From an uncultured archaeon (GTDB lineage Archaea; Micrarchaeota; Micrarchaeia; Micrarchaeales; CABMGC01): DNA of 64,000 bases. Every line of letters starts with the position of its first letter. Position 1 is the first letter of the stretch. Location: NCBI GenBank assembly GCA_963787445.1, contig CAWBCT010000005.1, positions 512,001-576,000 on the forward strand, in the 5' to 3' direction. The position numbers and the translations under genes are program-made. Under the pieces are notes generated by a model, which saw only the letters and a program-made list of their open reading frames with translations, made no database searches and was not told the origin of the DNA. Positions 27,627 through 55,569 of the stretch are shown here, in pieces.

Positions 27627-29096
27627 TTATGAAGAGAGCATCCTGTTCAGCGCCGGGTAGCTGTCGAACATGTGCTCCTGCTCAAGCTGCTGGTACACCC
27701 CGTACATTATTCCCGCAGTCAGGAGGATTCCCATCCCGTTTCCGATCGCGCCGCTCAGTGTTGCGAACGCCGCAAGCAGACCCACGAAGATGCTGCCAAG
27801 CACCGTAACTGTTGGCAGGTACTTGTCTAGCACGCTCTGGATCATCCTCGGGTCGCGCCTGAAGCCGGGTATCTGCCACCCTACGTCCTGAAGCTGCTCA
27901 GAGACCGCCTTCGAGTTCTGCCCGGTCATCTCGACCCAGAACTTTCCGAAGACGATACAAAGTATGACCAGTATTATAGCATATATTATAAAGTGCACCC
28001 ACTCCGGTATCAAGAGCGGAGCTCCGCCCCAGGGCGGATACAACGGCGAGGTCTGGCTCTCCAGGACATAGATGTAGTTGCTGTAGCCGCCCACCCCATT
28101 GTATTTGGTGGAGTAAGGGAGATAGCCCAGCGGCTGCATGAGGTAGACAACGCCTCCGGTGAGGATCTGGCTGGTGCCGCCGGTTGAGGAGGTCTGGTTG
28201 GTGTAATAGGCGAAGAAGCTCACGATGTTGCCTGCGGCGCCACCGTGCACCGTGGCAAAGATCCTGAGCCAGACGCTGAGGCTTACCGTAAGCGAGGTGG
28301 CCAGGATGACCGGGAGCACGCTCACATACAGGAACGGGATGGGCAGCCGGCCTCCCACGCCCCTGAACTGGCTGAACACGAGGGGAAGCTCAATCTTCAT
28401 GTCAAGCACATAGATGCTGATCAGGAAGACGATCATGGCGAAGAAGAGCGGGCCGAAGTCAAGGATCATCTGCGGAATTGCTGTTGCCCCGCCCGATGCG
28501 AGCGAGGTCAAGGCCTCCGGGATGAGTATGTTGCCTGTTCCCGCGACTATGGCGTAGGCGACCCCGCCGGCTATGAACAGGTTTATTCCAGAGGTGATGC
28601 CGTACTTGGTCATCATCTCGTCAAGGTAGATGATTATTATCGCACTTACCGCAAGCTGGGCTGCGACCACTCCGAAGTACGCGGGGCTTGTGAGGACCAC
28701 GGTGGTCGATGTGAAGATCGTCGCCTCAATGATGGCGATGACTATCGCCGCAAGCTTCTGGATGCTCTGCATCCTGGACTTCTGGGCCGGGTCGTTCATG
28801 TCTATCTTCAGGACGCCCGCCCCCTGGAGCATCTGGAGTATGATGCTCGATAGCACAATCGGCCCGATACCGACAGTCACCAACGTGCCTATGCGTGCCG
28901 CGAAGATAGTGTTTATTACTGCGAACAGCGGGCTGTTGAGCGCCGCAATGTTCACTCCGAACGCCGGAGTGCTGAACATAACGAAATAGACCGCTATGAC
29001 GATTGCCGTCCACTTCAGCTTCTCCCTGAACGTAAGCGGCCCAAGGGGGCTCTTAATGTTCGGTATGAAGTTCAGGATCGTGTCAAGTATCGACAT
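27627..29096 (-). CDS. secY: Preprotein translocase SecY (Sec61alpha)
   Basis: GIGPIV, KYGITSGINLFIAGG, LPIPFLYVSVLPVIL, IPGFRRD, GMGILL. Confidence 0.96.
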   Translation of the reverse strand: MSILDTILNFIPNIKSPLGPLTFREKLKWTAIVIAVYFVMFSTPAFGVNIAALNSPLFAVINTIFAARIGTLVTVGIGPIVLSSIILQMLQGAGVLKIDMNDPAQKSRMQSIQKLAAIVIAIIEATIFTSTTVVLTSPAYFGVVAAQLAVSAIIIIYLDEMMTKYGITSGINLFIAGGVAYAIVAGTGNILIPEALTSLASGGATAIPQMILDFGPLFFAMIVFLISIYVLDMKIELPLVFSQFRGVGGRLPIPFLYVSVLPVILATSLTVSLSVWLRIFATVHGGAAGNIVSFFAYYTNQTSSTGGTSQILTGGVVYLMQPLGYLPYSTKYNGVGGYSNYIYVLESQTSPLYPPWGGAPLLIPEWVHFIIYAIILVILCIVFGKFWVEMTGQNSKAVSEQLQDVGWQIPGFRRDPRMIQSVLDKYLPTVTVLGSIFVGLLAAFATLSGAIGNGMGILLTAGIMYGVYQQLEQEHMFDSYPALNRMLSS

Positions 29097-41249: not shown

Positions 41250-41897
41250 TTGGCAATGGAAATGGATGAGTATTCAGACGAGCAGGCATGGAACCCCAAG
41301 ACAAAGGTAGGAAAGCTAGTGCAGGGGGGCCAGATACGCAGCATCGAGGAGATCTCGGCCAGCGGGAAGACCATCAAGGAGGTGGGCATAGTCGATGCGC
41401 TCATCCCCAAACTTGAGGACAAGGTGCTTGAGATCGCCTCAGTCCAGAGAATGACGAAGAACAAGAGAAGGCAGAAGTTCAGGGTCACCGTGGTGGTCGG
41501 GGACAGGAACGGCCACGTGGGAATCGGAGTGGGCAAGGACCTGGAAGTCAAGCCCGCCATCGAGACCGCGATCAAGGACGCAAAGAGGAATATCATTTCA
41601 ATAACCTTGGGCTGCGGCTCCTGGGAGTGCAACTGCGGGACAAACCACACCCTGCCGCTCACCAGGTCTGCAAAGTGCGGCAGCGTCGCCGTCACGCTTA
41701 AGCCTGCTCCAAGGGGAGTCGGCATAGTCGCCGCGGAGACGATGAAGTCGGTGCTCGAGCTCGCGGGAGTGAAGGACGTCTGGACCTATTCCAGGGGCAG
41801 GACGAGAAACATCTACAACATCTCCATGGCCACCTACGAGGCGCTGAAGAGCGTCGCCGGGATAAAGAACTCGGAAACCCTCAAAGCCCTCCAGTAA
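41250..41897 (+). CDS. rps5: 30S ribosomal protein S5
   Basis: WNPKTKVG, VQRMT, GCGSWEC, LKPAPRGVG. Confidence 0.96.
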   Translation: MAMEMDEYSDEQAWNPKTKVGKLVQGGQIRSIEEISASGKTIKEVGIVDALIPKLEDKVLEIASVQRMTKNKRRQKFRVTVVVGDRNGHVGIGVGKDLEVKPAIETAIKDAKRNIISITLGCGSWECNCGTNHTLPLTRSAKCGSVAVTLKPAPRGVGIVAAETMKSVLELAGVKDVWTYSRGRTRNIYNISMATYEALKSVAGIKNSETLKALQ

Positions 41898-41958
41898 TTC
41901 TGATCTGCGCCGCTGAGGATAATCTTATAAATCAGCTTCGCGTATTACTCCTTGAAGT

Positions 41959-42029
41959 GCCTCAGTGGTGTAGCGGCAGCATAAGGGGTTGTGGACCCCT
42001 AGGTCCGGGTTCGACCCCCGGCTAAGGCC
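41959..42029 (+). tRNA. tRNA-His(GTG)
   Basis: AGGGG-TTGTGGA-CCCCT anticodon arm, GGTTCGACCC T arm, discriminator C; one C-A mismatch in the acceptor stem. Confidence 0.9.
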
Positions 42030-42080
42030 TTCTCTCACTCAATCTTAAAAACCTTCCCATTCTATTAGATATGTGATAAA

Positions 42081-42476
42081 ATGGCAAAGAAGACTAAAGA
42101 AGTAGCGCCCAAGCGCCCCTGGCTTTCATTCGCTTTCACCTTCGTTGGTAGCGTCATCTTTCTAGGAGTAGTGTCCATGAGCAGCCTGCTGCTCAACGGC
42201 TCCACGAGCCTATGGCAACCTCTGCTTTATTCTGCGGCGATAATCGGCTCACTTGTGGTCTTTGTAGGAAACATCGTAAACCTGGCCTGCCCGGGCTCCT
42301 TCCCGGGAAGGAAGCTCGCAAAGGTCGGGCTGGTCACCGGCTTCAGCCTTATTGCGCTGACCTTCGCGCTGGCAAACCCGACTGTCTTCTCGCTCTCTGT
42401 CCTGGGCTTCCTCCTGGTGTTCTTTGGAAGCTCGATGGCTTCGCGCTGCGGTTGTGAATGCGGCTGCTGCGAGTAA
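42081..42476 (+). CDS. Four-TM membrane protein with Cys-rich tail
   Basis: Four hydrophobic segments; ends CGCECGCCE. Confidence 0.6.
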   Translation: MAKKTKEVAPKRPWLSFAFTFVGSVIFLGVVSMSSLLLNGSTSLWQPLLYSAAIIGSLVVFVGNIVNLACPGSFPGRKLAKVGLVTGFSLIALTFALANPTVFSLSVLGFLLVFFGSSMASRCGCECGCCE

Positions 42477-42555: not shown

Positions 42556-44232
42556 ATGGCATTGTTCCTCCTTTCCCTAGGCGCCGTTGATGCGCTGGCT
42601 CCAGTGCTGGTCATCATCGTTCTCATAGGCGCCGCAGCGGGGATCACGCGGGGCTTCAGCTTCCTGGACCTGTTCGGGATAAGCACACTGGCCAACATCA
42701 TGGGGCGGAAGACCAAGGCCTCGTTCGCAAAGGGTACGTTCAGCAAGGACATAGTGCAGGCGCCGTTTGGAGGCCCAAGGGGAGGCAAAAAATTTAGCGT
42801 CCCTTTGAATAAAGGCGCGGCCCAGATTGGAGGCGCCCAGGCTCCAAAGGGAGGCAAAAAAGCAACAAAGTTTAGCCCTGTTAAAAACCTTCTTATGCCC
42901 AGCCCGGTGGTGAGCGGCATACCTGGATATCTTTTCACCAAGTCCAAAGCAACCGGCACGAACGTCAAAACAGCCTATAGCAGGACCAAGCAGGCAAGGA
43001 AAGCAGCCGGCAAGCGGGTCTCCACCGCGTACAAGAGCGCCCCGGGCATGTTCGTCAACCGGCGCGGCAGGGCAGCCTTCAGCGAGGCCTACAACAAGGC
43101 AAGCAAGACGACCGCAACCGCAGCGGGCAAGATGGCCTACGATAGGGCAACCCGCATAGCCAAGAGTCCGCACCCTGCAAAGTTGGCCACGCGCTATGCA
43201 AGGCGCGCAATATACAAGAGCGGTTTCAGGCGCCCCGGGTTCACCGAGCGGGTTGTGCGACGCGGTGTCCACCAAACCAAGCAGAAGGTCGCACAGAAGG
43301 CCGGTGAATACCACGCCGGCTACGTAAATTACGCGAAAAGAAACGCAACCCCACCAAAGCTGAAACCCCACCAGCGCGTAACGCTTAACCAGATCCGGCA
43401 AAGGAGCCCGGCCAAATCCTCCGCATCCCCCTCTCCGCCGCCATACCTTGAGCCACCGCCGGCTACCCCGCTAGCGGCTGCGGCGGTAACTGCAGGGGCC
43501 GCCGTAGCTGGGGCTCCAAAGCCAGACTGGAAGAACTACGAAGCCTACTTCCAGGGGTCTGATGGAATTGCCACACCACAAGCTCCGGGAATCAGCACCC
43601 AGGAGATGGTGGGTGCGCTTTGCGCCAGTAAAGAGAACTTTGAGAATCTTTACGCTGGGAAGCAGTTTATACAATTTGGAAGCCCTACCACCGGCGACGC
43701 CGAGGGCGGGTTCAAGGTGCACATCCGTGTAAGCGATAGTGATTACGAAAAATTTGCCATGGAGTACCTGCCCAGCCTCGCCCAGCAGGCAGAGAAGAAC
43801 AAGATAGATTTCAAGATAGTTGGATCCAAAGGCGAGAAGGCCTTCTCTGTGGACAACTGCCTTGAGCAGGCAGAGGCAGGCGGCAGGGAGGTATCCTCAC
43901 AGGTCGGAAAGATGATAACCATATACGTGCCTGAGAACAAGAGCGAGTTGGTTGCTGACATAGTCAACAACGCAGAGAAGGCGGCCCAGAGGATAAAGCC
44001 AAAGTCAACGCTCCAGGAACTGCGCGACAAGGGCGTAAAGGACCCGAACTCCGTGATGAAGGAGGTTCTGTTGGGCCAGAGCAACATTGTTTCGGTAAGA
44101 TGGTCATCTGATTTCTACGGAAGAGACCACGCGCTTGATGTCAAGGAGAGAAAGGCGGATGCGGCAGACGTGATAAACGCAGATCCCAAGCGCAAGCAGA
44201 TGTTTGACTCGATAAAGAACAAGATAAAGTAA
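42556..44232 (+). CDS. Membrane-anchored protein: basic low-complexity stalk, Pro-rich linker, C-terminal phosphothreonine-lyase-like (OspF/LanL) domain
   Basis: N-terminal TM; K/R/A-rich middle; PSPPPYLEPPP; GFKVHI...DFKIV...QVGKMITIY...IVSVRW. Confidence 0.6.
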   Translation: MALFLLSLGAVDALAPVLVIIVLIGAAAGITRGFSFLDLFGISTLANIMGRKTKASFAKGTFSKDIVQAPFGGPRGGKKFSVPLNKGAAQIGGAQAPKGGKKATKFSPVKNLLMPSPVVSGIPGYLFTKSKATGTNVKTAYSRTKQARKAAGKRVSTAYKSAPGMFVNRRGRAAFSEAYNKASKTTATAAGKMAYDRATRIAKSPHPAKLATRYARRAIYKSGFRRPGFTERVVRRGVHQTKQKVAQKAGEYHAGYVNYAKRNATPPKLKPHQRVTLNQIRQRSPAKSSASPSPPPYLEPPPATPLAAAAVTAGAAVAGAPKPDWKNYEAYFQGSDGIATPQAPGISTQEMVGALCASKENFENLYAGKQFIQFGSPTTGDAEGGFKVHIRVSDSDYEKFAMEYLPSLAQQAEKNKIDFKIVGSKGEKAFSVDNCLEQAEAGGREVSSQVGKMITIYVPENKSELVADIVNNAEKAAQRIKPKSTLQELRDKGVKDPNSVMKEVLLGQSNIVSVRWSSDFYGRDHALDVKERKADAADVINADPKRKQMFDSIKNKIK

Positions 44233-44298: not shown

Positions 44299-45534
44299 AT
44301 GCAAAGAAGCGCAGTAATTAGTGCACTGTTTCTGATGGCTCTTCTTTCCGTAAGCGTGCTGCACGCCCAGTCCTGCCCGCCACCCGCCGCTTCCACCTAC
44401 GCAACCGCATTGTCCAGCTCCACTTCCGGCATCGCGGTCGCAGCCTCGGCCATCGCGCTTATGGTCTCCTTCGCGGTGGTGGGCACGGGGTACATCGTAA
44501 GCAAGCTCTTTCCATCTGCAGGCCTCAGCCGCTGGCTGCAGAACGAGTACAAGGAGATTGCCAAGACGGCGATCCTGATAGTCGTCATATTCTCCGTGAT
44601 AGCCATAGTAAGCAACGTGGCGCTTCTGCTTACCGGCGCGCAGGGAGGGACGAGCTATGTCTCAAACCTGGGCGCGCTTACAACCCAATCCGAGCAGTAT
44701 CTCTGCACCGTAAATGCCAATGTCATCAGCGGACTGACAGCCATGACGGACCTGGAACTGGGCTACGGGCTTCTCAACAGCATAAGCATAACCTACTCTG
44801 GGTTTCCCATCCCTCCAGTGCCGCTTCCCCCTGCATTCTTCTGGGTGCCTGTTTTTAAGTCCGGAGCCTCGTTCACACTTCTAAAGAACGACTTTCTGAA
44901 CGTGCTCACTGCGCCAGGTCAACCGCCCTCACTGATGACGGATATCATAACCCTGATATACTTCCCGGTTGTCAACCTGTACACCGTGCAGATAACTTTG
45001 CTGCCGTTCCTAATATGGATAGGCATAGTAGTGCTAATTCCCATGGGCCTGGTGCTGCGTGCCTTGCCGTTGGTTCGCGGCCTCGGCGGGACCCTGGTGG
45101 CGTTGGGGCTGCTGTTTGCCCTGATCTGGCCGTCTATCCTGGTTCTTTTCAATGCACCAATCACCAATTATTTCTACAATGTGCTCAATTTGCAAATCGT
45201 GACCCCGCATGCGGCCTGCACCTCGTTCGGGAGCTCGATCTTCGCTCCAATCTGCACGGGCCTTAGCTCGTTTTTCACCTCGTTCGGAGGATTCCTTACC
45301 CCGGTCACCAATGCTGCCGGCACCGCCGTCGCTTCCGAAGCCATCTCGCTCTCCACCCTATTCTCGATATACCCGGCGCTCAACTACATCCTCGCCTGGA
45401 CGATCTACCCCATCTTCCTTCTTTTCTTCCTATTAATATTTGACCTGCTGATAGCGTACACGATAACCGACAACATCGCCAGGCTGCTGGGCGGCTCGGT
45501 GCGTCTCTCCATAGGCAAACTCAAGCTGATATGA
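44299..45534 (+). CDS. CedA/VirB6-like multi-pass membrane protein, paralogue 1
   Basis: RWLQNEYKEIAKT and GLVLRALPLVRGLGGTLVALG..IWP motifs shared with its neighbours. Confidence 0.55.
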   Translation: MQRSAVISALFLMALLSVSVLHAQSCPPPAASTYATALSSSTSGIAVAASAIALMVSFAVVGTGYIVSKLFPSAGLSRWLQNEYKEIAKTAILIVVIFSVIAIVSNVALLLTGAQGGTSYVSNLGALTTQSEQYLCTVNANVISGLTAMTDLELGYGLLNSISITYSGFPIPPVPLPPAFFWVPVFKSGASFTLLKNDFLNVLTAPGQPPSLMTDIITLIYFPVVNLYTVQITLLPFLIWIGIVVLIPMGLVLRALPLVRGLGGTLVALGLLFALIWPSILVLFNAPITNYFYNVLNLQIVTPHAACTSFGSSIFAPICTGLSSFFTSFGGFLTPVTNAAGTAVASEAISLSTLFSIYPALNYILAWTIYPIFLLFFLLIFDLLIAYTITDNIARLLGGSVRLSIGKLKLI

Positions 45535-46772
45535 TGGATCTAACCCTCCTCTTCCAAACGGTGCAGGCCTGTTCCCCCTCGGCACTGAACGTGAACAACT
45601 GGATAGGCATAAACGTGCTCGTTGTGCTTGCGTTTCTGGGAGTCGCCTCATTCATCTACGCGACCAGCAACCTGATGTCGAACACCTACCGCGAGCGGGT
45701 CCGCAAGATACTGCGCGGCGAGTACACCGAGTGCATGATAAGCATCTTCCTCATAACCTCGCTCATAACGATCAGCTACGCCTCGTGCAACATCGGCGCC
45801 AGCCTCTCCGGCCTCGGTAGCAACTACCAGAACGTCTTCCAGGCGGACAACTACTACATCGGCACGCTCCTGTTCTCAAAAGGCACCGGCATAGTCTCCG
45901 GGCTGATAACCCAGGGGCTCTTCCTCTCCATTGACGGCCTGATCGCAAATCAGGTGCTTTCCTCGTATAACGCCTACATCAACAACCAGCTCCCTAATGA
46001 GGGGACCATAGCAGGCACACCCAATCCGCAGGTGGGACAGCCGGCCTACGCGATTGAGGCCGAATACGATGGCGATATCTACACCGTATACAACTCCTAC
46101 GCCGATGTATACACCACCTATGCTGGGTTCATAGTCCTGGGCTTCGGGGTGCTCTTCGTCCTCTTCTTCATGCTCCCCATAATAAGTTCCACCGCTCTTG
46201 TCCTGCTCGTTCCTGTCGCGATAATAATGCGTTCCCTGGCATTCTCCGGGCCCAAGCTCCGCGAGGCCGCGAACGCGCTTCTGGCCCTCTCCATCGCGCT
46301 TTACTTTGTCTTTCCACTGGCAATCTCCATGAACGGGTACGTAGTGAGCTGGGTGTACTGCACCCAGAGCCCCTACCAGTTGTCTGTGGCGAATGCCCCG
46401 TCCGCGCCGTCGACCTCGTGCAACCCATACCCCCAGTACGTAAGCGCCTACGCAATCAACAGCATACCGATCTCGACGTTCTTCGCGCAAAACGCGATCT
46501 CGGAGTACAACTCCGGCGCGCTCCAGAGCAACTTCCTCGGCGCCGCAAACCTGGGGACCGGAAACATAGTGAATACGGTCACAACCCTTGTACAGGGGCT
46601 TGTCGGACTGCCCTCCCTGATCTCCAATTACACCAACCAGGTTGCCGAGTACCTGTTTGAGTGCGTGGTGCTTGTCGCGCTGGACTTCGCGATAACCATG
46701 GGCTTTGCCCAAAGTCTTTATAAGGGCCTGAACTCCATCTCAGGAGTGCTCGGCGCGGGTTCGTTCTGGTGA
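45531..46772 (+). CDS. CedA/VirB6-like membrane protein, paralogue 2
   Basis: RKILRGEYTEC and IIMRSLAFSGPKLREAANALLAL..VFP. Confidence 0.5.
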   Translation: MMDLTLLFQTVQACSPSALNVNNWIGINVLVVLAFLGVASFIYATSNLMSNTYRERVRKILRGEYTECMISIFLITSLITISYASCNIGASLSGLGSNYQNVFQADNYYIGTLLFSKGTGIVSGLITQGLFLSIDGLIANQVLSSYNAYINNQLPNEGTIAGTPNPQVGQPAYAIEAEYDGDIYTVYNSYADVYTTYAGFIVLGFGVLFVLFFMLPIISSTALVLLVPVAIIMRSLAFSGPKLREAANALLALSIALYFVFPLAISMNGYVVSWVYCTQSPYQLSVANAPSAPSTSCNPYPQYVSAYAINSIPISTFFAQNAISEYNSGALQSNFLGAANLGTGNIVNTVTTLVQGLVGLPSLISNYTNQVAEYLFECVVLVALDFAITMGFAQSLYKGLNSISGVLGAGSFW

Positions 46773-46773
46773 T

Positions 46774-48201
46774 ATGACAATGCAAAAGAGCTTCCTCATT
46801 GTGCTGGCTGCGCTCCTCGTGGTGAGCGTCTCGGCCCAGACCTACCCGATCGCAACAAACATCTCCTACTTCACGCAGTGGCTTCCCGTGGTCGTCCTGG
46901 CGGTCATGCTCAGCATAGGGATAGTCGTAGGATACTACCTGCTCGGGATGCTGCTGAACAACAGCCAGATGCGTTCCGGGGCCATCAACGAGTTCAGCAA
47001 TGTGATATTCACAATTGTGATTGTGGTCATAATCCTGGCTATATTCAACTTCATTGGCAACGCCGCCTACGCCACCGCGGTCATCCCCAGGTCTGTTCCC
47101 CAGTCCATCTGCAATACGCTCCAGAACGCGAACCTCAACTTCATAAGCACGAGCACCCAGTACAACTCGCCGGCCGAGCAGATCTGCGCCTCCCTGATAA
47201 ACAACAATGCCGGGGCAGGCCTCACCCCAAACATAGACTACCCTCTCGCATCCACCTACCTGATCATTGCCAACCTCACCAACCAGAGCGTCACCAACCT
47301 GAATGCGGTGTATGTCTTTGGCAGTTACATAAACTTTCTGGGGAGCTTCGTTGCGACGGACAGCATCTGCGTGCCCAATGAGACCTGCCTTTTGGGAACC
47401 TTTGGATCAGAGGCTGTGGGCTTTACGGCGATTGTCAGCTTTTCCCCATTTGCAGGAGAGACAAGCGTCGCCTACACCATGCGCGCGTTCACTACCCAGT
47501 CCACGCTCATCTTCACCTCCTTCATGCTGCAGCTGATCGGCATAATCGTGATGCTTTTCATGTGGCCGTACCTGCTTGCTGCTGGGATCATACTGCGCTC
47601 CACCTTCCTGACGCGCAGGCTGGGCGGCCTCCTCATCGCCATCTGCATAGGCGGCCTGCTGGTTTTCCCGCTGGTCTTCCTTGCCCAGTACGCCGGGCTG
47701 ACAAACGCCAACCTGGTGCCCATAGGCTCAAACACCTTCAACTCCATGAACTCAAACGCGATACCCATCCTGGCCATCAACGGCTTGGACAACAACGGCA
47801 ATCTCGTAGTCTACAACTCCAACTCGATCAACTTCTACGTCTTCCCCCGCGCAGATTACGCCATCCACGCCGCCGGATGCTGGCCCCATGTCGACCTGCT
47901 CACCCAGGAGCTTGCAATCGTCACCACCTACATAGCTCCGGGCTACGGCCTAGCCGTTGGGCTGTCGAATTTGGCCGGCAGCCTTGGGAGCTTTACCACA
48001 ACTGCCCTGCTGCCCACCAGCTGCAACACTGCAGCCTCGATAAACTCGCTTTACGCCCTTGCAAACATCTACGGCATCATGTCCATAATAGGAATATTCT
48101 TCCCCCTGATGGACCTGCTGATCGGGATCTCCGCAATCATCGGGATCTCGGACCTGATCGGAGGCTCCACCTCGCTGATCGGCTTGGAAAGGTTGTTATG
48201 A
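46774..48201 (+). CDS. CedA/VirB6-like membrane protein, paralogue 3
   Basis: MRSGAINEFSN and GIILRSTFLTRRLGGLLIAI..VFP. Confidence 0.55.
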   Translation: MTMQKSFLIVLAALLVVSVSAQTYPIATNISYFTQWLPVVVLAVMLSIGIVVGYYLLGMLLNNSQMRSGAINEFSNVIFTIVIVVIILAIFNFIGNAAYATAVIPRSVPQSICNTLQNANLNFISTSTQYNSPAEQICASLINNNAGAGLTPNIDYPLASTYLIIANLTNQSVTNLNAVYVFGSYINFLGSFVATDSICVPNETCLLGTFGSEAVGFTAIVSFSPFAGETSVAYTMRAFTTQSTLIFTSFMLQLIGIIVMLFMWPYLLAAGIILRSTFLTRRLGGLLIAICIGGLLVFPLVFLAQYAGLTNANLVPIGSNTFNSMNSNAIPILAINGLDNNGNLVVYNSNSINFYVFPRADYAIHAAGCWPHVDLLTQELAIVTTYIAPGYGLAVGLSNLAGSLGSFTTTALLPTSCNTAASINSLYALANIYGIMSIIGIFFPLMDLLIGISAIIGISDLIGGSTSLIGLERLL

Positions 48202-48202
48202 T

Positions 48203-49459
48203 ATGAAAAAACAATTGGTCGCCTTTGTCTTTCTGTTCCTTCTTCTGGGTAGCATCTATGCCCAGAACATCCCAGTTACCACCTCCGCGCCCTCCGGCAC
48301 CACCTCTTCCAGCACATCTCAACCTTATTGCACAGACCTCTTTACAAACTCGAACAGCCTCGTCAGCAATGCCCTGTACAACCCGTCCACCTACGGCAAC
48401 CTAAACATCCCGGGCAGCCTCATGGCGATCTCGTTCCTTATAATCATGGCGGTGCTCCTCACGATCTCCCTGGTATACGGGATAGGGATAGGCTTCGGCA
48501 TAGACTCCTTCGTGAGGTTCGCACGAAGCGAGTACCTCGAATCGTTCTTCAATATCATCATCCTGCTGCTCATAATAGGCGGCATAGTGTTCGCCAACTG
48601 GCTGCCCACCTTCTTTAACGACATCACGTCCGTGAGTCTGCCTGCCGCGGCAGCCCTGCCTACGACAACTGCGGGCAGCACCAACTCCGTATCGGCGGGC
48701 GTGTACACCGCGATATGCAACAACATCATCTCGAACCAGGTAATTCCCTCGCTTGGCGTATTTGTCTTGTCCACAACAATCGAAAATACGTACAAGGCCG
48801 TAGCCAGCCTATCCATCGTGATTATTCCTCCGACATTTCTGCCGTCATTCTCAATCAAACCTTTCTCAGGCCTCTCCGCAAACCTGGCCTTTGTCTCTGA
48901 GCAGGTGGGCGTAATCTTCGTCGTGCTGGGCATTGACGCATCCGTGATCTTCCTGCTGTTCATAATCTACTTCCTGTTTCCAATCTACCTTTATCTCGGA
49001 ATAGTCCTCCGCTCCTTCCCGTGGACTAGGGCGGCGGGCGGCACCTTCATCGCCATCTTCATCGCATTTTACATAGTCTTCCCGGCGATACTGTACCCAT
49101 TCACAACGGCCACCAGAAGCACAAGCACCGGCTCCGGCCTATGCCAAACCGGCGCCAGCAGCGGCACAAACTACTGCCTGACTCCTGTCACCAGCCTCTC
49201 CTCCTTCATCACCACCGCCTTCTCCGTGCTCAATAACCAGGGAGGCGGCACGGTCTCGGGAGGGGCTTCAACACTGATCCAAAGCTTTGGTCTCACCGGC
49301 ACAATCGCCATATACACTGCGGCGATTGCATTCTTTGTCGAGACGCTGGCGGGGATATTCATCGCCTACCTTGTCTCCTACGAACTGCTTGAGATGCTCG
49401 GCGACGTGCTGGGAGCGCCGTCTCTAAATGCCAACAGTCTCATAAGGGGGATAATATGA
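48203..49459 (+). CDS. CedA/VirB6-like membrane protein, paralogue 4
   Basis: VRFARSEYLES and GIVLRSFPWTRAAGGTFIAI..VFP. Confidence 0.55.
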   Translation: MKKQLVAFVFLFLLLGSIYAQNIPVTTSAPSGTTSSSTSQPYCTDLFTNSNSLVSNALYNPSTYGNLNIPGSLMAISFLIIMAVLLTISLVYGIGIGFGIDSFVRFARSEYLESFFNIIILLLIIGGIVFANWLPTFFNDITSVSLPAAAALPTTTAGSTNSVSAGVYTAICNNIISNQVIPSLGVFVLSTTIENTYKAVASLSIVIIPPTFLPSFSIKPFSGLSANLAFVSEQVGVIFVVLGIDASVIFLLFIIYFLFPIYLYLGIVLRSFPWTRAAGGTFIAIFIAFYIVFPAILYPFTTATRSTSTGSGLCQTGASSGTNYCLTPVTSLSSFITTAFSVLNNQGGGTVSGGASTLIQSFGLTGTIAIYTAAIAFFVETLAGIFIAYLVSYELLEMLGDVLGAPSLNANSLIRGII

Positions 49460-50550
49460 TCTTCTTCGCAAGCATAATACCGGCGCTCGTCTTCCTCCAG
49501 ACCAGCTGCGTGAGCAGCATCAGCAGCTTCCTCACCGCGCCCTACACGAGCTGGTTTCCGATCGCAGCGCTTGCGGTGCTCGCCTTCACCGGCATCGTCC
49601 TGGTAATCTACATGCTCGGCCCGCTTCTCGGAGACAGCGGAAACATAAGGGCCTGGTCGCGCATGAAGTTCTACGAGCTCATCACCTCACTCATCCTGAT
49701 AATCATCTTCGCAGCCATGGCCACCAGCATCTGCACCGTAGACCCCACGAGCGCGCTCGGCAGCGTAGGATTAATCTCCTCATCGTGCTCATCGGGCACG
49801 GGCAACAACATATACTCGATCTCGCTTTGCGACCTCTACACCTTCAACACCTACGTGCTGAACTTCAATGAGCTCCTGTACCTTGTGCAGGTGCGGTTCA
49901 GCACCTCGCTCTCATACACCTACACCTTTAAGTTCAATGTCGGCGGAAACCTCAACCAGAAAAGCAGCGTCAGCTTAGGTCCGATCGGCTTCGGCCCGTC
50001 GGTCGGCCTCGCAGTCGGCGGAGGCGGCGGCCTGGGAGACTTCGGGCTGTACGCGGTGCCCATAATATACACATTCATCCTGCTGAACCAGCTCCAGCTT
50101 CTCCTGCTCGCGGTAGCGCCGCTGATCTTCGCCGTCTTCATGGCGATAGGTCTCATCTCGCGCGCCTTCGGCTTCGCCCGCTCCTTCGGAGGCGCGATGA
50201 TCGCCTTCGGGCTCGGGATAGGCCTGATCTATCCCCTTCTGATAGCCGTGAACTACGGCTTCCTGGATTACGCGCTGGAGCACGTCTCCGCCCTCGGGAC
50301 CGCGGCGCTCGCCCCGATCATAGCCTATCCGGTTGCCACCTACGTGGCGATGGCCGTACAGTACTTCACCGGCGCATCGCTCCTTTCATTCATCCCGGAG
50401 TACCTCTTCGCCTACATCGGCCTGATATTCATCGGCATAGTCTTTATGGATGTTTTTAACCTTGTGATACTTGACACGTTTGTAACGGAGTTCTCCCAGG
50501 CGATTGGGGACCGCATCAGCTTCCTCTCGCTGCTCGAGAACGTGCTATGA
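49456..50550 (+). CDS. CedA/VirB6-like membrane protein, paralogue 5
   Basis: IRAWSRMKFYEL and GLISRAFGFARSFGGAMIAFG..IYP. Confidence 0.55.
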   Translation: MIFFASIIPALVFLQTSCVSSISSFLTAPYTSWFPIAALAVLAFTGIVLVIYMLGPLLGDSGNIRAWSRMKFYELITSLILIIIFAAMATSICTVDPTSALGSVGLISSSCSSGTGNNIYSISLCDLYTFNTYVLNFNELLYLVQVRFSTSLSYTYTFKFNVGGNLNQKSSVSLGPIGFGPSVGLAVGGGGGLGDFGLYAVPIIYTFILLNQLQLLLLAVAPLIFAVFMAIGLISRAFGFARSFGGAMIAFGLGIGLIYPLLIAVNYGFLDYALEHVSALGTAALAPIIAYPVATYVAMAVQYFTGASLLSFIPEYLFAYIGLIFIGIVFMDVFNLVILDTFVTEFSQAIGDRISFLSLLENVL

Positions 50551-50559
50551 GTTGAACCT

Positions 50560-51639
50560 ATGAAACTGCTTGCTGTTTTGATCGCGCTCGCCTCGCTCGG
50601 GCTGTTCACGGTAGGCGCCCAGAGCAGCAGCATCTGCAGCTCTACGAGCAGCAGCGTAATCTACCAGTACGCCCCCTGGTACTGCAGCCAGGCGAACCAG
50701 GCGATCGCGAACTACTGGGTCCAGTACGAGCCCATCGCCTTCCTGGCCATCCTCCTCTCGTTCTCGGTCGCGGTGCTGCTCTTTGCGATCAGCGCCTTCC
50801 TGCGGAGTGAGAGGCTGAGGAACTTCGCTGTTGGTGAATTTTACGAAGCCGCCGCGACCACCCTGATAGTCGTCGCCTTCCTCTTCGTCACTGCCGTCAT
50901 CGTTGGCCTCCTGCCCTCCCTCATACTCGCCAATACGAACCCATACGTCAGCTCGCTCAACTACATAAGCGGAACCATAACCTCCACCCAGGGTCTCATC
51001 ACCCAGATGCTCCAGATCACCATAGCCGACAAGTACTACGCGAGCCTCAACCTTCAACTGTGCTCCCCCATAGTGTCGGACACCACCTGCATCAGCAACC
51101 TCCTGGGCTACCTCACTCCCGCAATAACCGTATGGTTCGTGGTGCCGGCGCAGACCATAAGCGCCCTGATGTTTGACGGTGTGATGCTCCTCTACGGCGA
51201 GTTCTACCTTATAATGATCATGATGTACGCCGCAATCCCGGTCTTCCTCATACCAGGGATAATCTTCCGCGCGATACTACCGCTCCGCAACCTCGGAGGG
51301 ATGATGATCGCCATAGCGATCGGTGGCTTCGTGATCATGCCCACCCTCTTCTCCGTGGCCTTCTACTTCACCAACACCGCCCTGCAGGGCCAGATCGCAT
51401 CCACCACGGCGTCGCTCGCCAGGTACGGAACCGGGAGCGGTGCCCAGCTGAATGCAATCTCGCAGCAGTCGCCGCTGGTGCAGACGCTCGGGCAGATAAA
51501 CACCAGCCTCAGCGCGTTCTGGATGTCCGTCCTTTTCTATCCTTCGCTGATCTTCGCGCTGACCTACATTTTCATAACCGAAACCGCCAAGTTTATAGGG
51601 GGTGCCACGAAGTTCTCCGGAAGGCTCAGGATTGTTTGA
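50560..51639 (+). CDS. CedA/VirB6-like membrane protein, paralogue 6
   Basis: LRNFAVGEFYEA and GIIFRAILPLRNLGGMMIAI..IMP. Confidence 0.55.
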   Translation: MKLLAVLIALASLGLFTVGAQSSSICSSTSSSVIYQYAPWYCSQANQAIANYWVQYEPIAFLAILLSFSVAVLLFAISAFLRSERLRNFAVGEFYEAAATTLIVVAFLFVTAVIVGLLPSLILANTNPYVSSLNYISGTITSTQGLITQMLQITIADKYYASLNLQLCSPIVSDTTCISNLLGYLTPAITVWFVVPAQTISALMFDGVMLLYGEFYLIMIMMYAAIPVFLIPGIIFRAILPLRNLGGMMIAIAIGGFVIMPTLFSVAFYFTNTALQGQIASTTASLARYGTGSGAQLNAISQQSPLVQTLGQINTSLSAFWMSVLFYPSLIFALTYIFITETAKFIGGATKFSGRLRIV

Positions 51640-51708
51640 GCCACTCGCCATAGCTAAAAAGATTAGTGTTGTATCCATATAGGTGCTCCTCTGGCTCTTA
51701 AAACGCAG

Positions 51709-52524
51709 ATGCTGTTGTTTCTCATACTCGCCAGCGCCTCGCTGGTCTGCGCCATAGTTCCATTCGTAATAAGCAACTTCGCCATCGACTTCTTTCTCGC
51801 GCTGCTCGCATTGCTGCTTGCGATAATCGCCTTCTCCACCAAATACTACACCTACCTTTACATCCCCGCGACCAGGATGAAGAACCGGAACATCGTCGTA
51901 AGTTCGGCAGAGCCCTACTTCGTCTCGCCTTCGGGAACCTCCATAGTGATAAGGGATGAGAACGGCACCTACGCCACCTCGTTTGTAAACATCCCGATGT
52001 ACCGCTCCGGCACCGAGATGACCGCCGCCGAGAAGCTGGACATCGCAAGGATGTTCAGCCGGATGCTTACGGTGACCAAGAGCACTGTCAAGTTCTCCTC
52101 CGAGCTCTACATGGTCAGCAAGGACGAGTACATAGCCCAGATTAGAAAGAGGCTCGAGCAGGCGGAGGAGCGCCTGCACAATCTCACTCCCTCCGACCCC
52201 AAGCAGCGCTCGCCGCAGGCCGATCGGGTGAAGGGAGAGACCCAGATGTGGCACAACCTGCTGAACAGCATAAGCGGCTCAAAATCCGAGTCGCTGATGT
52301 CCTACGCGATGGTGAGCGCCTTCGGCGGGAACGAGGAGGAGGCCTCCAACATAGCCTACCAGCGCGCCGAGGAGCTCGCCGCCGGAATAAGCTCCGTGTT
52401 CGGGATCTCAGCCTATGTGATCAAGGGTGATGAGATGCTCAAGCTGATCGAGCCGGAGTACATGATCCCTGTCGAGACCGTGAACGAGATGATCAGGCAG
52501 AAGAGCATAGAGGAAGGAATATAG
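51709..52524 (+). CDS. Two-TM coiled-coil protein, VirB4/TraC N-terminal-domain-like (A)
   Basis: Two TM helices, NGTYATSF, KFS, coiled coil, MVSAFGGNEEEA; possible CTG start at 51691. Confidence 0.5.
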   Translation: MLLFLILASASLVCAIVPFVISNFAIDFFLALLALLLAIIAFSTKYYTYLYIPATRMKNRNIVVSSAEPYFVSPSGTSIVIRDENGTYATSFVNIPMYRSGTEMTAAEKLDIARMFSRMLTVTKSTVKFSSELYMVSKDEYIAQIRKRLEQAEERLHNLTPSDPKQRSPQADRVKGETQMWHNLLNSISGSKSESLMSYAMVSAFGGNEEEASNIAYQRAEELAAGISSVFGISAYVIKGDEMLKLIEPEYMIPVETVNEMIRQKSIEEGI

Positions 52525-52531
52525 TGATTCC

Positions 52532-53356
52532 ATGGATGAACAAACCGTAATGTATCTTGCATTCTCTGCAATCTCGATACTGATAATCCTGCTGGGTCTC
52601 GCGAACTACGGCCCCCTTGGCTCTGTTGTGGCTCTGCTCGCCGTAATAGCACTCGTATTTATCCTGCTGCTCAACTACGCCGACTTCCTGATCTTTCCCG
52701 CGGTGACGCGCATTCTTGGGGTAACCATAACCCTTTCAAAGGGCAACACGGCGCCCAAGGAGCAGAATAGGGTGGTGAAGTACGCGAACGGGCTGTACTA
52801 CGCCACCGGCTACCTCACGGCGAACATCTACAACTACGTATTCCGCCAGGAGTCCATACTCCAGCAGGACGACCAGATGATGGCCTCTGCGCCTGACAAA
52901 TGGGAGCGGATAGTCATGAACGTCGACTTCCCCTTCAAGTTCAGCATGATCTCCAATCCGCAGGACATACAGAAGTACAGGGAGGACCTGGAGGGCGACC
53001 GGGGCTACTACGAGTTCCAGCTCTCGAAGCTGGCGGGCTCCAGCGCGCCGAGCCAGATGCAGATGGACAGCCTGCAGCGCCAGATAAACATAGTGCAGGC
53101 GCGAATCGACCGCATCTCCGGCGGCGAGCTGCCGATAAACGCGCTTATGTACATCGAGACCACGGCTGTGGGAGTGAGCGACAAGGCCGCCGCAGACGCG
53201 CTGACCAACCAGCTCAACAAGCTCCAGACCGTGTTCAACGCCTTTGACCTGAACATAATCCGCATCGTCGGAAGGGAGGTGCACACGCTGCACAAGCTGA
53301 ACTACTTCCTCTTCGACCCGACGGACATGCAGAAGCTGTTCAACATGCAGAAGTAA
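52532..53356 (+). CDS. Two-TM coiled-coil protein, VirB4/TraC N-terminal-domain-like (B)
   Basis: Two TM helices, NGLYYATGY, KFS, coiled coil, ETTAVGVSDKAA; paralogous to the previous gene. Confidence 0.5.
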   Translation: MDEQTVMYLAFSAISILIILLGLANYGPLGSVVALLAVIALVFILLLNYADFLIFPAVTRILGVTITLSKGNTAPKEQNRVVKYANGLYYATGYLTANIYNYVFRQESILQQDDQMMASAPDKWERIVMNVDFPFKFSMISNPQDIQKYREDLEGDRGYYEFQLSKLAGSSAPSQMQMDSLQRQINIVQARIDRISGGELPINALMYIETTAVGVSDKAAADALTNQLNKLQTVFNAFDLNIIRIVGREVHTLHKLNYFLFDPTDMQKLFNMQK

Positions 53357-53397
53357 CCCGCTTGAAGATTTTTAAGCTTATACGTCATTGTATAATC

Positions 53398-54900
53398 ATG
53401 ACGCTAGTGCGCATCCAAACTCTGATGAGCAACGAGGCCGCTAAGCGCCTCTTCCTCACAAGGCCCCCGGAGCCTCCGTTCGAGTTTCTGCTTAACGACC
53501 CGACCAACTCGATCTTCATAGGCGTGACCAAGCTGTTCAAGGTGCCGTTCACCTGGTCCTCATCGCAGCTCACGAACCCGCATATCTCGGTGGTGGGAAT
53601 AACCGGATCGGGAAAGAGCTTCTTCGTAAAGACCTTCCTGACCAGGGCGAGCTACGTCTGGAACACCAACGCGATAATAATCGACTGGGCGGGAGAGTAT
53701 CTCTCCTGGGTAAAGCAGAGCGGCGGTGTGGTCGTCTCCTTCTCCCGCGGGGACTACATGAATATAATGGACCTGTCGGGCATGAAGCCGATTGACCGCG
53801 CAAAGCAGATCATGAACTCGCTGGACATACTCACGGACATCGCCGACTTTCCTGAACAGCGAAGACTCACTGCCGAGGCGATAGAGCAGGCCTACGTGAA
53901 CACCGGCTTTGCCCTGGCTGCGGTGCCTGCGCCCAACCGCGAGGCCCCAACGCTGAAGGAAGTAACGCACCTGCTTGAGGAGAAACTGCAGGAAGGCACC
54001 TACGCCTATCCCGCCGAGCTCGAAAATACGATCTACCGCCTAAGGCAGTTCTCAAGGGAGGGGGAGGACTACTTTGCCAACAAGAGCACCATCGACATAG
54101 GCAAGCTCTCAACGTCGGGCCTTGTGGACCTTGACCTTTCCGGCCTGCCCGACGAGCGTTTCCGCGCCATGGCAGCCCTGTTCATACTCCAGACACTCAA
54201 GGAGAAGATGAGGATGGAGGGCTGGAGCGCCACGGCTGGCATCAAGACCTTCGTCGTCCTTGACGAGGCCTGGAAGGTCGCGAGCGACGAGCGCAGCGAC
54301 GCGGTCACGATAATCAGGGAGGGCCGCAAGTACCAGTTCGGCCTCATTGTCGCCTCTCAGAACCCGACAGACGTAAACGAGGCGATCTTCTCCAACGTCG
54401 GCACGACCTTCATGCTCCGCATCCGCTTCGAGAAGTTCATGAATTATCTCCAGGGCTCGCTAAACTTCTCGGACTTCATACGCGGAGAGATAGGCAAGTT
54501 CGGAGTGGGCCAGGCGGCTGTCGACATGGCATTCAACACCAGCGTCAGGTTTCCAAACGTCTTCATACTGGAGCGGGTTGTGGGCGAGCTGCCGCTCGAT
54601 ACCTACATAATCTTCCTCACCGAGGTCCTTGACCAGAAGGAGCTTCAGGACCCCGCCGTTGTCAAGGAGTACTCGTTCGACAAGATAAACCTGAGCTCAA
54701 AGATGATCGAGAGCGGGATCGGCTCCGAGATAATAACAAAGTCGCTCGAAGCCATAACGACCGGCGGAAAGACCATAGACGTGAAGAACTTCGTAAAGTT
54801 GCTGACCGGGCTGGGCGTGAGCAACGAAACGATCGTAAACCTGCTGCGCAGCATAGGGCTGCTGGACCCGCTGATAACCCGCATCCTGGGCCAAATGTGA
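53398..54900 (+). CDS. HerA/VirB4/CedB-family pumping ATPase (DUF87)
   Basis: NPHISVVGITGSGKS Walker A, IIDWAGEY, FVVLDEAW Walker B, REGRKY, ASQNPTD. Confidence 0.88.
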   Translation: MTLVRIQTLMSNEAAKRLFLTRPPEPPFEFLLNDPTNSIFIGVTKLFKVPFTWSSSQLTNPHISVVGITGSGKSFFVKTFLTRASYVWNTNAIIIDWAGEYLSWVKQSGGVVVSFSRGDYMNIMDLSGMKPIDRAKQIMNSLDILTDIADFPEQRRLTAEAIEQAYVNTGFALAAVPAPNREAPTLKEVTHLLEEKLQEGTYAYPAELENTIYRLRQFSREGEDYFANKSTIDIGKLSTSGLVDLDLSGLPDERFRAMAALFILQTLKEKMRMEGWSATAGIKTFVVLDEAWKVASDERSDAVTIIREGRKYQFGLIVASQNPTDVNEAIFSNVGTTFMLRIRFEKFMNYLQGSLNFSDFIRGEIGKFGVGQAAVDMAFNTSVRFPNVFILERVVGELPLDTYIIFLTEVLDQKELQDPAVVKEYSFDKINLSSKMIESGIGSEIITKSLEAITTGGKTIDVKNFVKLLTGLGVSNETIVNLLRSIGLLDPLITRILGQM

Positions 54901-54904
54901 TGAG

Positions 54905-55210
54905 ATGGCGCAATCAACCAACAACGTATCCGTCAAGAAGCTGGACCTCAAGAAGATGGTCACCTCGCTCGGGATAAGCGACGCGAGCACCGAGTCCCTG
55001 CTTGCCCGCCTGGACAAGATGCACAAGCACGTGGACGCGGTGAGCTTTGTCGGAATGCTGGAGAAGCTCGGCATAAAGCAGAAGGACATCGCAAACATAC
55101 TCAGGCGGATAGGCCTGAACGACACCTCCATAGTCGAGATATTCAACATGCTGGACGAGGAGAAGATTGAGGAGACCTTTGGCAAGATAATGCACCTGAG
55201 GGTGGAATGA
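54905..55210 (+). CDS. Small helical protein homologous to the ATPase C-terminal tail
   Basis: VDAVSFVGMLEKLGIKQKDIANILRRIGLND versus ATPase IDVKNFVKLLTGLGVSNETIVNLLRSIGLLD. Confidence 0.7.
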   Translation: MAQSTNNVSVKKLDLKKMVTSLGISDASTESLLARLDKMHKHVDAVSFVGMLEKLGIKQKDIANILRRIGLNDTSIVEIFNMLDEEKIEETFGKIMHLRVE

Positions 55211-55569
55211 TGAAACAAAAAAACGTTTGCGTAGTTTGCGGCAAGGAGAAGAACGGGCTGGAGGTAAAGACGGACAACGTGATAAGGACGATACGCTACA
55301 TCAAGCTCAAGCTGTTCCGCAAGGTCAGCAACAACCGCCTGGTGGTGTGCAAGGAGTGCTACGAGAATTACAAGAAGTACAGGAAGAAGTATATCGGAAG
55401 GCAGAGATTGTACGTGGCACTGGGCGTGCTCTTCCTGATCTTCGGTATGCTGCTGAACCCCTCCTTCGTTGCGCTGTTTGTGGGAATTTTCATAACCGTC
55501 GTCATGTACCTGCTGTCCCTGCTAAGCTACCTCCCGGAGATTGACCTGGGCAAGGCGCAGAAGAAGTAA
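55207..55569 (+). CDS. Zinc-finger (CxxC...CxxC) two-TM membrane protein
   Basis: CVVCGKE...VVCKEC followed by two TM helices; overlaps the previous stop. Confidence 0.7.
   Translation: MMKQKNVCVVCGKEKNGLEVKTDNVIRTIRYIKLKLFRKVSNNRLVVCKECYENYKKYRKKYIGRQRLYVALGVLFLIFGMLLNPSFVALFVGIFITVVMYLLSLLSYLPEIDLGKAQKK

Follow-up and report, generated by a model that had tools for sequence, protein, structure and literature searches.

The gene at 42556..44232 on the plus strand of an archaeal DNA stretch encodes a protein of 558 residues, in which a domain with the fold of the phosphothreonine-lyase superfamily is joined, through an Ala/Pro-rich linker and a long basic stalk, to an N-terminal membrane anchor. 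The stretch of 64,000 nucleotides (nt), hereafter referred to as the window, represents positions 512001-576000 of contig C5 in the genome labelled G000 (assembly of 1,048,747 bp in 19 contigs, completeness 82.3%, contamination 5.4%), in which the lyase-fusion gene is present as one copy. The explanation that we favour, and hold to be fairly probable as a whole, is that the product is a membrane-tethered, kinase-less lyase acting on phosphoserine and phosphothreonine, carried by a conserved anchor-stalk protein of the DPANN archaea and encoded at an operon of the HerA/VirB4 type. The parts of the protein and the putative catalytic codons are located as follows.

42556..44232, plus strand: lyase-fusion open reading frame (ORF) of 558 residues, running from the anchor through the basic stalk and the Ala/Pro linker to the lyase head
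42556..42705, plus strand: N-terminal hydrophobic anchor, residues 1-50, one long transmembrane (TM) segment with a short amphipathic one after it, from hydropathy
42706..43425, plus strand: basic low-complexity stalk, residues 51-290 (240 residues), from composition
43426..43590, plus strand: Ala/Pro-rich linker, residues 291-345, from composition; its modelled part has a predicted local distance difference test score (pLDDT) below 50
43591..44229, plus strand: phosphothreonine-lyase-fold domain, residues 346-558, charge-balanced and modelled with confidence
43714-43716 (K387), 43720-43722 (H389), 43813-43815 (K420) and 43909-43911 (K452), plus strand: putative catalytic codons
43924-43926 (Y457), 44098-44100 (R515) and 44149-44151 (R532), plus strand: putative catalytic codons

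Fold, catalytic residues and distribution of the lyase domain

Exhaustive comparison by phmmer of residues 321-558 with 1.84 billion representative proteins gave eight proteins at an expectation value (E) <= 0.001: the query itself, six true relatives (P0002-P0006 and P0008; 24-40% identity) and P0007, a repeat protein of 1008 residues, which was dropped as spurious because it matched only query residues 172-201, in nine stretches. Among about 15 billion proteins, the family makes up seven representative clusters with 1-4 members in each, and 'hypothetical protein' is the sole source name. In domain numbering, which counts from residue 321, the start of the region used for the model and as the search query (R195, for example, is R515), the columns invariant in the alignment of the seven sequences are G65, K67, H69, Q129, K132, T135, Y137, R195, W196, S197, S198, F200, E211 and R212. 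With the profile of the seven members, 11 different sequences in PDB were matched at E <= 10; they are class III lanthipeptide synthetases or LanKC-type proteins named 'protein kinase domain-containing', of about 860-900 residues, and the match is in their N-terminal region. The best match was ThurKC (E 2e-4), with an alignment spanning GWKIH, IEFK and GKFITIY. The N-terminus of a LanKC-like gene on a bacterial genome contig was matched by hhalign with a probability of 96.1% (E 2.8e-9), and weak matches to Pfam RamC_N (PF25816) were detected for four of the seven family members, the best at E 5.8e-5. Single-sequence searches of Pfam, NCBIfam and PHROGs gave nothing useful for the full protein or for the domain alone, and phmmer with the domain found no PDB sequence at E <= 10. 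The word-indexed search returned only the query for the full protein, among 8000 scored candidates, and only P0008 and the query for the lyase profile.

The AlphaFold2 model of residues 321-558, built on the seven-row alignment, shows the characteristic alpha/beta lyase fold of the phosphothreonine-lyase superfamily, with a mean pLDDT of 83.9 and a predicted template-modelling score of 0.83; pLDDT fell below 50 only at domain residues 1-24 and 59-61. At E <= 0.001, Foldseek against PDB gave 14 matches, and those listed are SpvC and synthetases of class III lanthipeptides. The E values were 1.3e-6 for ThurKC, 8.4e-4 for SpvC and 2.9e-3 for OspF, and the identity to characterised lyases is 11-19%. 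A preliminary description of this gene had proposed homology to the OspF/SpvC and lanthipeptide-synthetase lyases; the homology is backed by the profile, the fold and the catalytic residues, and the comparison with SpvC, OspF and LanL by AlphaFold and Foldseek that it had recommended, run on residues 321-558, recovered the lyase-family fold. As one part of the favoured explanation, and with the same reasonable likelihood as the whole, residues about 346-558 can be regarded as a genuine lyase domain that represents, within the RamC_N / OspF-SpvC superfamily, a divergent branch lacking the kinase.

According to excerpts of PMC10604976 and PMC4159009, the phosphate is bound in SpvC by K104, R148, R213 and R220, with H106 serving as acid and K136 as base; Y158, which keeps the base deprotonated, also belongs to the catalytic set (excerpt of PMC4159009). 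The SpvC residues K104/H106/K136/R148/R213/R220 correspond to K65/H67/K94/K117/R163/R191 of ThurKC (excerpt of PMC10604976), an enzyme that is inactive in its K65A, K94A and R163A variants (excerpts of PMC10604976 and PMC4159009). By profile alignment, K387, H389, K420 and K452 of the window protein map onto K65, H67, K94 and K117 of ThurKC, respectively, using an inferred offset of 3 between the chain index and the numbering of the paper. The K-x-H motif is kept, K387 and H389 in GFKVH being aligned to GWKIH of ThurKC, and the putative base K420 in DFK is aligned to the Lys of IEFK. K452, the residue aligned to K117, and Y457 are both conserved (GKxITIY). R515 was aligned by MAFFT to the Arg of the 'YRYG' motif of LanKC, and R532 is invariant in all seven family members, its spacing suggesting equivalence to SpvC R220 and ThurKC R191.

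A wider MAFFT alignment of 19 sequences was composed of the 7 family members, 4 further copies from the phylum Microcaldota (of the DPANN kingdom Nanobdellati, and including Micrarchaeia), 6 N-termini of LanKC-type or lyase-kinase proteins and 2 short stand-alone copies. All 19 have the same residue at K67, H69, K132 and T135, and G65, K100 (the column of the putative base K420), Q129 and Y137 are at least 90% conserved. The model strands carrying the putative catalytic residues lie at 65-70, 98-102, 134-139 and 192-197, with mean pLDDT of 84-97 in 10-residue blocks. The motifs on which the preliminary description relied are all present, GFKVHI (K387, H389), DFKIV (K420), SSQVGKMITIY (K452, Y457) and IVSVRW (R515), and the K/H/K/Y columns that it took as catalytic are invariant in seven of seven members, except for K420, which is Gln in P0004. 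As judged from these residues, the domain is probably catalytically competent and active on phosphoserine and phosphothreonine by beta-elimination.

The occurrence of the domain was examined among 41 related genomes, G000 and 40 others. The lyase profile matched in two of them, G000 and G002, and the match in G002 (E 3.2e-5) was dropped, the ORF concerned being an unrelated one of 134 residues, which by eye we take to be NifU/IscU-like. Across the phylum, the profile matched in 3 of 401 genomes: besides G000, a stand-alone copy of 208 residues with the 'RWAS' type of motif was found in G337, and three paralogues of 290-318 residues with the 'YRY' type in G253. The paralogues of G253 (L068:1018-1887, L069:1306-2259 and L069:2219-3094) have a C-terminal region in common, and two of them adjoin each other and an ORF of 331 residues. 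A metagenome scan gave 17 lyase loci, three of which encode tail-anchored proteins of the P0008 type; the rest are mostly lyase-kinase or LanKC-type, judged by reading the sequences. One of the 17 loci (L038:9737-13615) encodes an archaeal protein of 1293 residues in which RamC_N (E 3.4e-30) is combined with zinc ribbons and an extensive multi-TM part, without a kinase, making it another type of kinase-less lyase embedded in the membrane; the archaeal assignment is based on a TFIIB gene nearby, and genes for CARDB-domain proteins follow downstream. As far as these sequences indicate, kinase-less, membrane-associated lyase domains recur in archaea but rarely. The scan of genome contigs detected only L004, a bacterial LanKC-like gene adjoining a Cys-rich peptide gene, and L005, a stand-alone lyase-like ORF of 157 residues. 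None of 31 pattern matches in IMG/VR was confirmed, and there was no sign of a virus-borne domain. Among the papers listed, none was found linking DPANN or Micrarchaeota with lyases of the OspF/SpvC-LanKC type.

The anchor-stalk protein and the membrane operon

Hydropathy windows above 1.6 are confined to residues 1-37, the sole strongly hydrophobic stretch of the 558-residue protein, and no Lys or Arg is located ahead of the anchor. The stalk (residues 51-290) has an isoelectric point of 11.7, with 54 Lys and Arg versus 5 Asp and Glu and a net charge of +49, and matched no family in Pfam, NCBIfam or PHROG. The linker (residues 291-345) contains 13 Ala and 12 Pro in a total of 55 residues. The anchor-linker-enzyme layout of the preliminary description was thus recognised in full, the protein being hydrophobic at residues 1-37, basic at 51-290, Ala/Pro-rich at 291-345 and charge-balanced at 346-558. 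In a second, independent assembly the fusion is present as an identical 558-residue protein save three substitutions. In a third assembly (P0009/P0011) the gene is split into products of 106 and 445 residues, stalk and lyase being together on the 445-residue product. The split reflects what looks like a frameshift close to residue 99, where the sequence is rich in Lys and Gly, and may be a sequencing error or genuine variation. Since stalk and lyase are joined in two further assemblies, the fusion is not an assembly artefact. The G+C content at third codon positions is 0.657 for the lyase part, near the values for the stalk (0.684) and for the upstream gene encoding a membrane protein with four TM segments (4-TM protein, 0.689), indicating no compositional sign of recent acquisition.

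Using the anchor and stalk (residues 1-320) as the query, matches were identified in 31 of the 41 genomes, the tallies for the anchor, the ATPase, the polytopic gene and the 4-TM protein all including the unpublished genome G038, which serves as the basis of no claim. The matching ORFs range from 313 to 988 residues and are divergent in their C-terminal parts. Only the first 50-160 residues match, with 32-60% identity over residues about 1-70; a basic stretch also follows the anchor in the orthologues, its sequence being not alignable with the stalk described here. Among 22 anchor-stalk orthologues analysed with Pfam, a DnaJ head was above threshold in two (G032 and G033; E 1.4e-17 and 1.6e-9).

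L051:128-2563 (G032): DnaJ-headed orthologue, anchor and stalk with a C-terminal J-domain
L057:126-1754 (G033): DnaJ-headed orthologue, anchor and stalk with a C-terminal J-domain

Hsp70 is encoded in G000, G032 and G033. No recognised domain was detected in 19 of the 22 orthologues, which are basic and then coiled-coil-like or low in complexity, and a marginal Vps4_C match in one of the 22 was disregarded. The same-genus orthologues examined have 305-428 residues and are without the lyase head. From this comparison of sequences, the lyase head was joined, in G000 alone among the 41, to the C-terminal end of the conserved anchor-stalk protein. The evidence shows this lineage-specific fusion, together with the fold, the conserved catalytic residues, the architecture and the operon context; catalytic activity, cytoplasmic location and target are inferred. 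By analogy with the J-domain heads, the anchor-stalk family suggests itself as a device that positions a functional head at a membrane complex. The resemblance to polymorphic effectors pointed out in the preliminary description holds in part: the N-terminal module is kept (31 of 41 genomes) and the C-termini vary, but a recognisable alternative head, DnaJ, was found in only 2 of 22 orthologues. A polymorphic system with an immunity gene is not upheld, the next gene encoding a polytopic membrane protein that is conserved in 35 of 41 genomes whatever the head. By Atlas, the neighbouring membrane proteins fall in clusters of mostly Microcaldota members, and the archaeal order with the anchor-stalk proteins probably represents this DPANN lineage. 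The genomes of the relatives are 0.6-1.2 Mb in size (rounded), G000 being 1.05 Mb.

The stalk and lyase head are predicted to be, and probably are, located on the cytoplasmic side. The lack of Lys and Arg before the anchor and the +49 stretch after it point to this orientation under the positive-inside rule, as do the J-domain heads at the same position in G032 and G033, genomes that encode Hsp70. The lyase homologues P0005, P0006 and P0008 are tail-anchored, with the lyase domain N-terminal, the sole strongly hydrophobic segments C-terminal and no signal peptide, and they also argue for a cytoplasmic head. The anchor would then insert with its N-terminus outside, so that the stalk and lyase head would be in the cytoplasm, where the head may be held at the inner membrane face on a leash of about 300 residues. 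There it would strip phosphoserine and phosphothreonine of their phosphate in proteins or peptides close by, with dehydroalanine or dehydrobutyrine as the product. The predicted cytoplasmic position of the head argues against a secreted effector.

The lyase-fusion gene is followed by an operon of membrane-protein genes ending with an ATPase gene.

44299..53356, plus strand: eight co-directional, tightly packed genes, with gaps of -4 to 69 nt
53362..54900, plus strand: HerA/VirB4-superfamily ATPase of 512 residues, last gene of the operon, from Pfam, NCBIfam and PDB sequence matches

For all genes between 42081 and 54900, the intergenic gaps range from -4 to 79 nt. The eight genes encode six proteins of 359-475 residues, the first three being visibly polytopic, and two of about 270 residues; none of the eight belongs to a Pfam or NCBIfam family. 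The ATPase matched DUF87 (E 1.2e-14), AAA_10 and the TraG P-loop in Pfam, and HerA and VirB4 among PDB sequences. The best NCBIfam match was the VirB4-like CD1110 (E 7.9e-19), with 67 bits against a cut-off of 325, and the other NCBIfam matches were also far below the cut-offs, including CedD (66 bits versus 600), CedB (57 versus 700) and TraC. The ATPase is present in 40 of the 41 genomes with 60-83% identity, a conservation unusually high for proteins without known role. The first polytopic gene is present in 35 of 41, in nearly all cases at a distance of about 9-10 kb from that of the ATPase. As regards a VirB6/CedA-like channel or a VirB2/CedA1-like pilin, the one lead came from Atlas, in which one polytopic protein pointed weakly (0.86; family on 23% of members) to a cluster with the CedA1 domain. 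From these matches it is plausible that the membrane operon encodes, in Microcaldota, an apparatus for type IV secretion or one resembling Ced; no paper was found linking DPANN or Micrarchaeota with Ced systems. The anchor gene is located directly upstream of the polytopic gene in all nine same-genus genomes having both, and in three of these nine the genes for L18 and S5 are directly upstream of the pair, as in G000. Three further genomes of the family, G012, G021 and G022, have the anchor gene inside the operon or beside it.

Other features of the surrounding region were also recorded. The ribosomal-protein cluster ends at S5 (41897-42081 region) with the membrane operon next, and SecY is encoded 13 kb upstream on the other strand (27627-29096). 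The minus-strand gene at 26221-27591 encodes a protein of 456 residues with a C-terminal SET domain (E 4e-13). Just past the ATPase gene, on the plus strand, an ORF of 120 residues (55207-55569) weakly matched a zinc-finger family of the CxxC…CxxC type (TIGR04104), at E 8e-4 and under the cut-off.

Candidate substrate and competing explanations

The gene directly upstream of the lyase fusion encodes the 4-TM protein, with an unusual C-terminal end.

42081..42476, plus strand: 4-TM membrane protein of 131 residues, candidate substrate or partner
about 42429-42473, plus strand: Ser/Cys-rich C-terminal tail SSMASRCGCECGCCE of the 4-TM protein, predicted to be cytoplasmic

Homologues of the 4-TM protein were found in 26 of the 41 genomes. 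In all 21 usable homologues the chain ends 2-8 residues past the final TM helix, the last 20 residues contain 0-1 Cys, and a Cys-rich tail is lacking; three loci were left out of this comparison, one from the unpublished genome, one without a match and one spurious. The tail peptide of the window protein regarded as the candidate substrate is …GSSMASRCGCECGCCE. Since its N-terminus and the loop joining TM2 to TM3 are basic, the 4-TM protein is predicted, under the positive-inside rule, to have an N-in/C-in topology, the tail being cytoplasmic like the lyase. The earlier view that no precursor peptide is adjacent is correct as to a small leader-core peptide, but the upstream 4-TM protein does end in the SSMASRCGCECGCCE tail, which is the most concrete candidate target of the lyase. 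The kinase and cyclase said to be lacking nearby were indeed absent from the 42 other window ORFs searched with Pfam and from the operon proteins. The fused kinase, a trait of LanKC and LanL, is also absent, the ORF ending 43 residues past R515 with no kinase family on it or its neighbours. In the G000 genome (82% complete), no LanC-like cyclase (PF05147) was detected at E <= 0.01, and three small RIO/Bud32-like ORFs of 193, 199 and 264 residues are the only kinases found.

Several observations weigh against the membrane-tethered lyase as we propose it. P0004 has Gln at the position of the putative base Lys, with a Lys two residues further on. Because the hidden Markov model alignment to ThurKC ends before R515, the assignment of R515 and R532 to SpvC R213 and R220 relies on MAFFT and spacing only. 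The window copy gave no match to Pfam RamC_N at E <= 1, the threshold of the curated model not being reached. The cytoplasmic position of the head is a prediction from sequence. No Hanks-type kinase was detected above the Pfam cut-off in the G000 genome (82% complete). Beyond the genus and G012, G021 and G022, the anchor gene is located away from the operon (family f3 and several f1 genomes). No Cys-rich neighbour was found beside the lyase homologues in L033 or L067, both short contigs, and the link between tail and lyase is therefore a single co-occurrence.

The fold itself recalls delivered effectors such as OspF and SpvC, and the preliminary description had taken the protein as an effector that could disable host phospho-signalling. 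By this explanation, the head and basic stalk would be passed through the ATPase apparatus or a cell-cell bridge into a host archaeon, where phosphoproteins would be inactivated irreversibly. The small genomes (0.6-1.2 Mb), the assignment of the neighbouring proteins to Microcaldota clusters in Atlas, the few kinases in the cell itself, the position of the gene at the head of an operon whose ATPase is nearest to VirB4, CedB, CedD and TraC, and the difference of the head among orthologues are all in agreement with such a role. Direct support was lacking, however, and the distribution of charge, the homologues with tail anchors and the orthologues with J-domain heads point instead to the cytoplasm; no signal peptide, cleavage or release site was identified in the protein. 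The apparatus is likewise doubtful, the ATPase scoring far under every curated VirB4/Ced cut-off, the CedA1 lead of the polytopic proteins in Atlas being only 0.86, and no paper found connecting DPANN or Micrarchaeota with Ced systems or, among those listed, with such lyases. Among the 40 other genomes, 38 of those having the ATPase lack a lyase match, and the single match among them (G002) is spurious, indicating that any export role is not tied to the apparatus. We consider the host-directed effector unlikely. The presence in adjacent genes of the lyase head and the SSMASRCGCECGCCE tail, both unseen in relatives, raises another explanation, in which the two arose together as an enzyme-substrate pair. 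The tail, perhaps phosphorylated by a RIO/Bud32-type kinase, would have its phosphoserine turned into dehydroalanine by the lyase, and addition of the neighbouring Cys thiols, whether spontaneous or assisted, would give lanthionine-type cross-links on an integral membrane protein at the HerA/VirB4-type apparatus. Both partners are predicted to be cytoplasmic and at the same membrane, the nearest solved relatives are the lyase domains of lanthipeptide synthetases, and Ser/Thr/Cys-rich C-termini beside lyase-fold genes have been proposed as archaeal precursors (excerpt of PMC4159009). Against this stand the failure to find a dedicated kinase or a LanC-like cyclase in the G000 genome, the presence of three Ser only and of no leader-like region in the tail, and the restriction of the co-occurrence to one case in one genome, other lyase-family members being without such a neighbour in the short contigs examined; Cys-rich tails could equally bind metals or be lipidated. 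A cross-linking pair is, in our estimate, very unlikely.

The strong divergence of the family from characterised lyases (11-19% identity) and the failure of Pfam to recognise the window copy could also be read as signs of a non-catalytic or re-purposed module, which, with the fold and a basic pocket retained, would bind phosphopeptides or anions, or act on a phosphorylated non-protein substrate, and tether partners as the Hsp70-recruiting J-domains do. The fold is common to HopA1 and the cap-binding eIF4E (excerpt of PMC4159009), and other orthologues of the anchor-stalk protein bear a recruiting J-domain and not an enzyme. The K-x-H motif, the base Lys and the Tyr are, however, kept across 19 sequences including bona fide lyase-kinase-cyclase enzymes, a conservation unexpected for a mere binder, and this explanation is the least likely of those considered.

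Comparison with known lyase systems

To our knowledge, two roles have been described for lyases of the OspF/SpvC fold: they are injected as effectors by Gram-negative pathogens, or they carry out dehydration in class III-V lanthipeptide synthesis, there always beside a kinase. The same catalytic scaffold is found here without a kinase, in a 1-Mb archaeal genome, tethered to the membrane by a basic disordered leash of about 300 residues, and it sits on a protein family otherwise bearing a J-domain or nothing, at the head of a strongly conserved membrane operon. The wider lyase family is new to annotation. If the membrane-tethered lyase is active, irreversible removal of Ser/Thr phosphate would be shown in DPANN archaea, and an experimental handle would be gained on an operon whose ATPase is present in 40 of 41 genomes. 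If the cross-linking pair were true, lanthipeptide chemistry would modify a structural membrane protein instead of making a secreted peptide.

In the class III synthetases (ThurKC, CuvL, SalKC and PneKC; RamC_N), the lyase is the N-terminal part of a soluble trifunctional enzyme, whereas here it is C-terminal on a membrane-anchored disordered protein. The kinase is fused in these synthetases; here the lyase stands without a fused kinase or a cyclase, and the genome yielded no LanC. The C-terminal motif is YRYG in the synthetases and RWSSxF…ER in the window protein, which is encoded by an archaeon with a reduced genome and is missed by Pfam RamC_N. OspF, SpvC and VirA share 11-15% identity with the domain described here and gave no match at the sequence level; they are soluble and injected by type III systems into eukaryotic cells, in contrast to the membrane-anchored archaeal protein with its predicted cytoplasm-facing head. 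LxmY of the class V pair LxmK/LxmY is a stand-alone lyase in complex with a dedicated neighbouring kinase, for which no counterpart was found here, and its structural match is much weaker.

The L038 protein is likewise archaeal and kinase-less, with the lyase joined to a membrane-embedded protein. Its lyase, however, is near the N-terminus and of the YRYG type, with numerous TM helices and a large, seemingly non-cytoplasmic region after it, and the family context is unrelated. Sec63 and Pam18/Tim14 are membrane-anchored J-proteins at translocons. They resemble, by analogy only, the anchor-stalk-J-domain orthologues of G032 and G033, whereas the head on the same kind of protein in G000 is a lyase.

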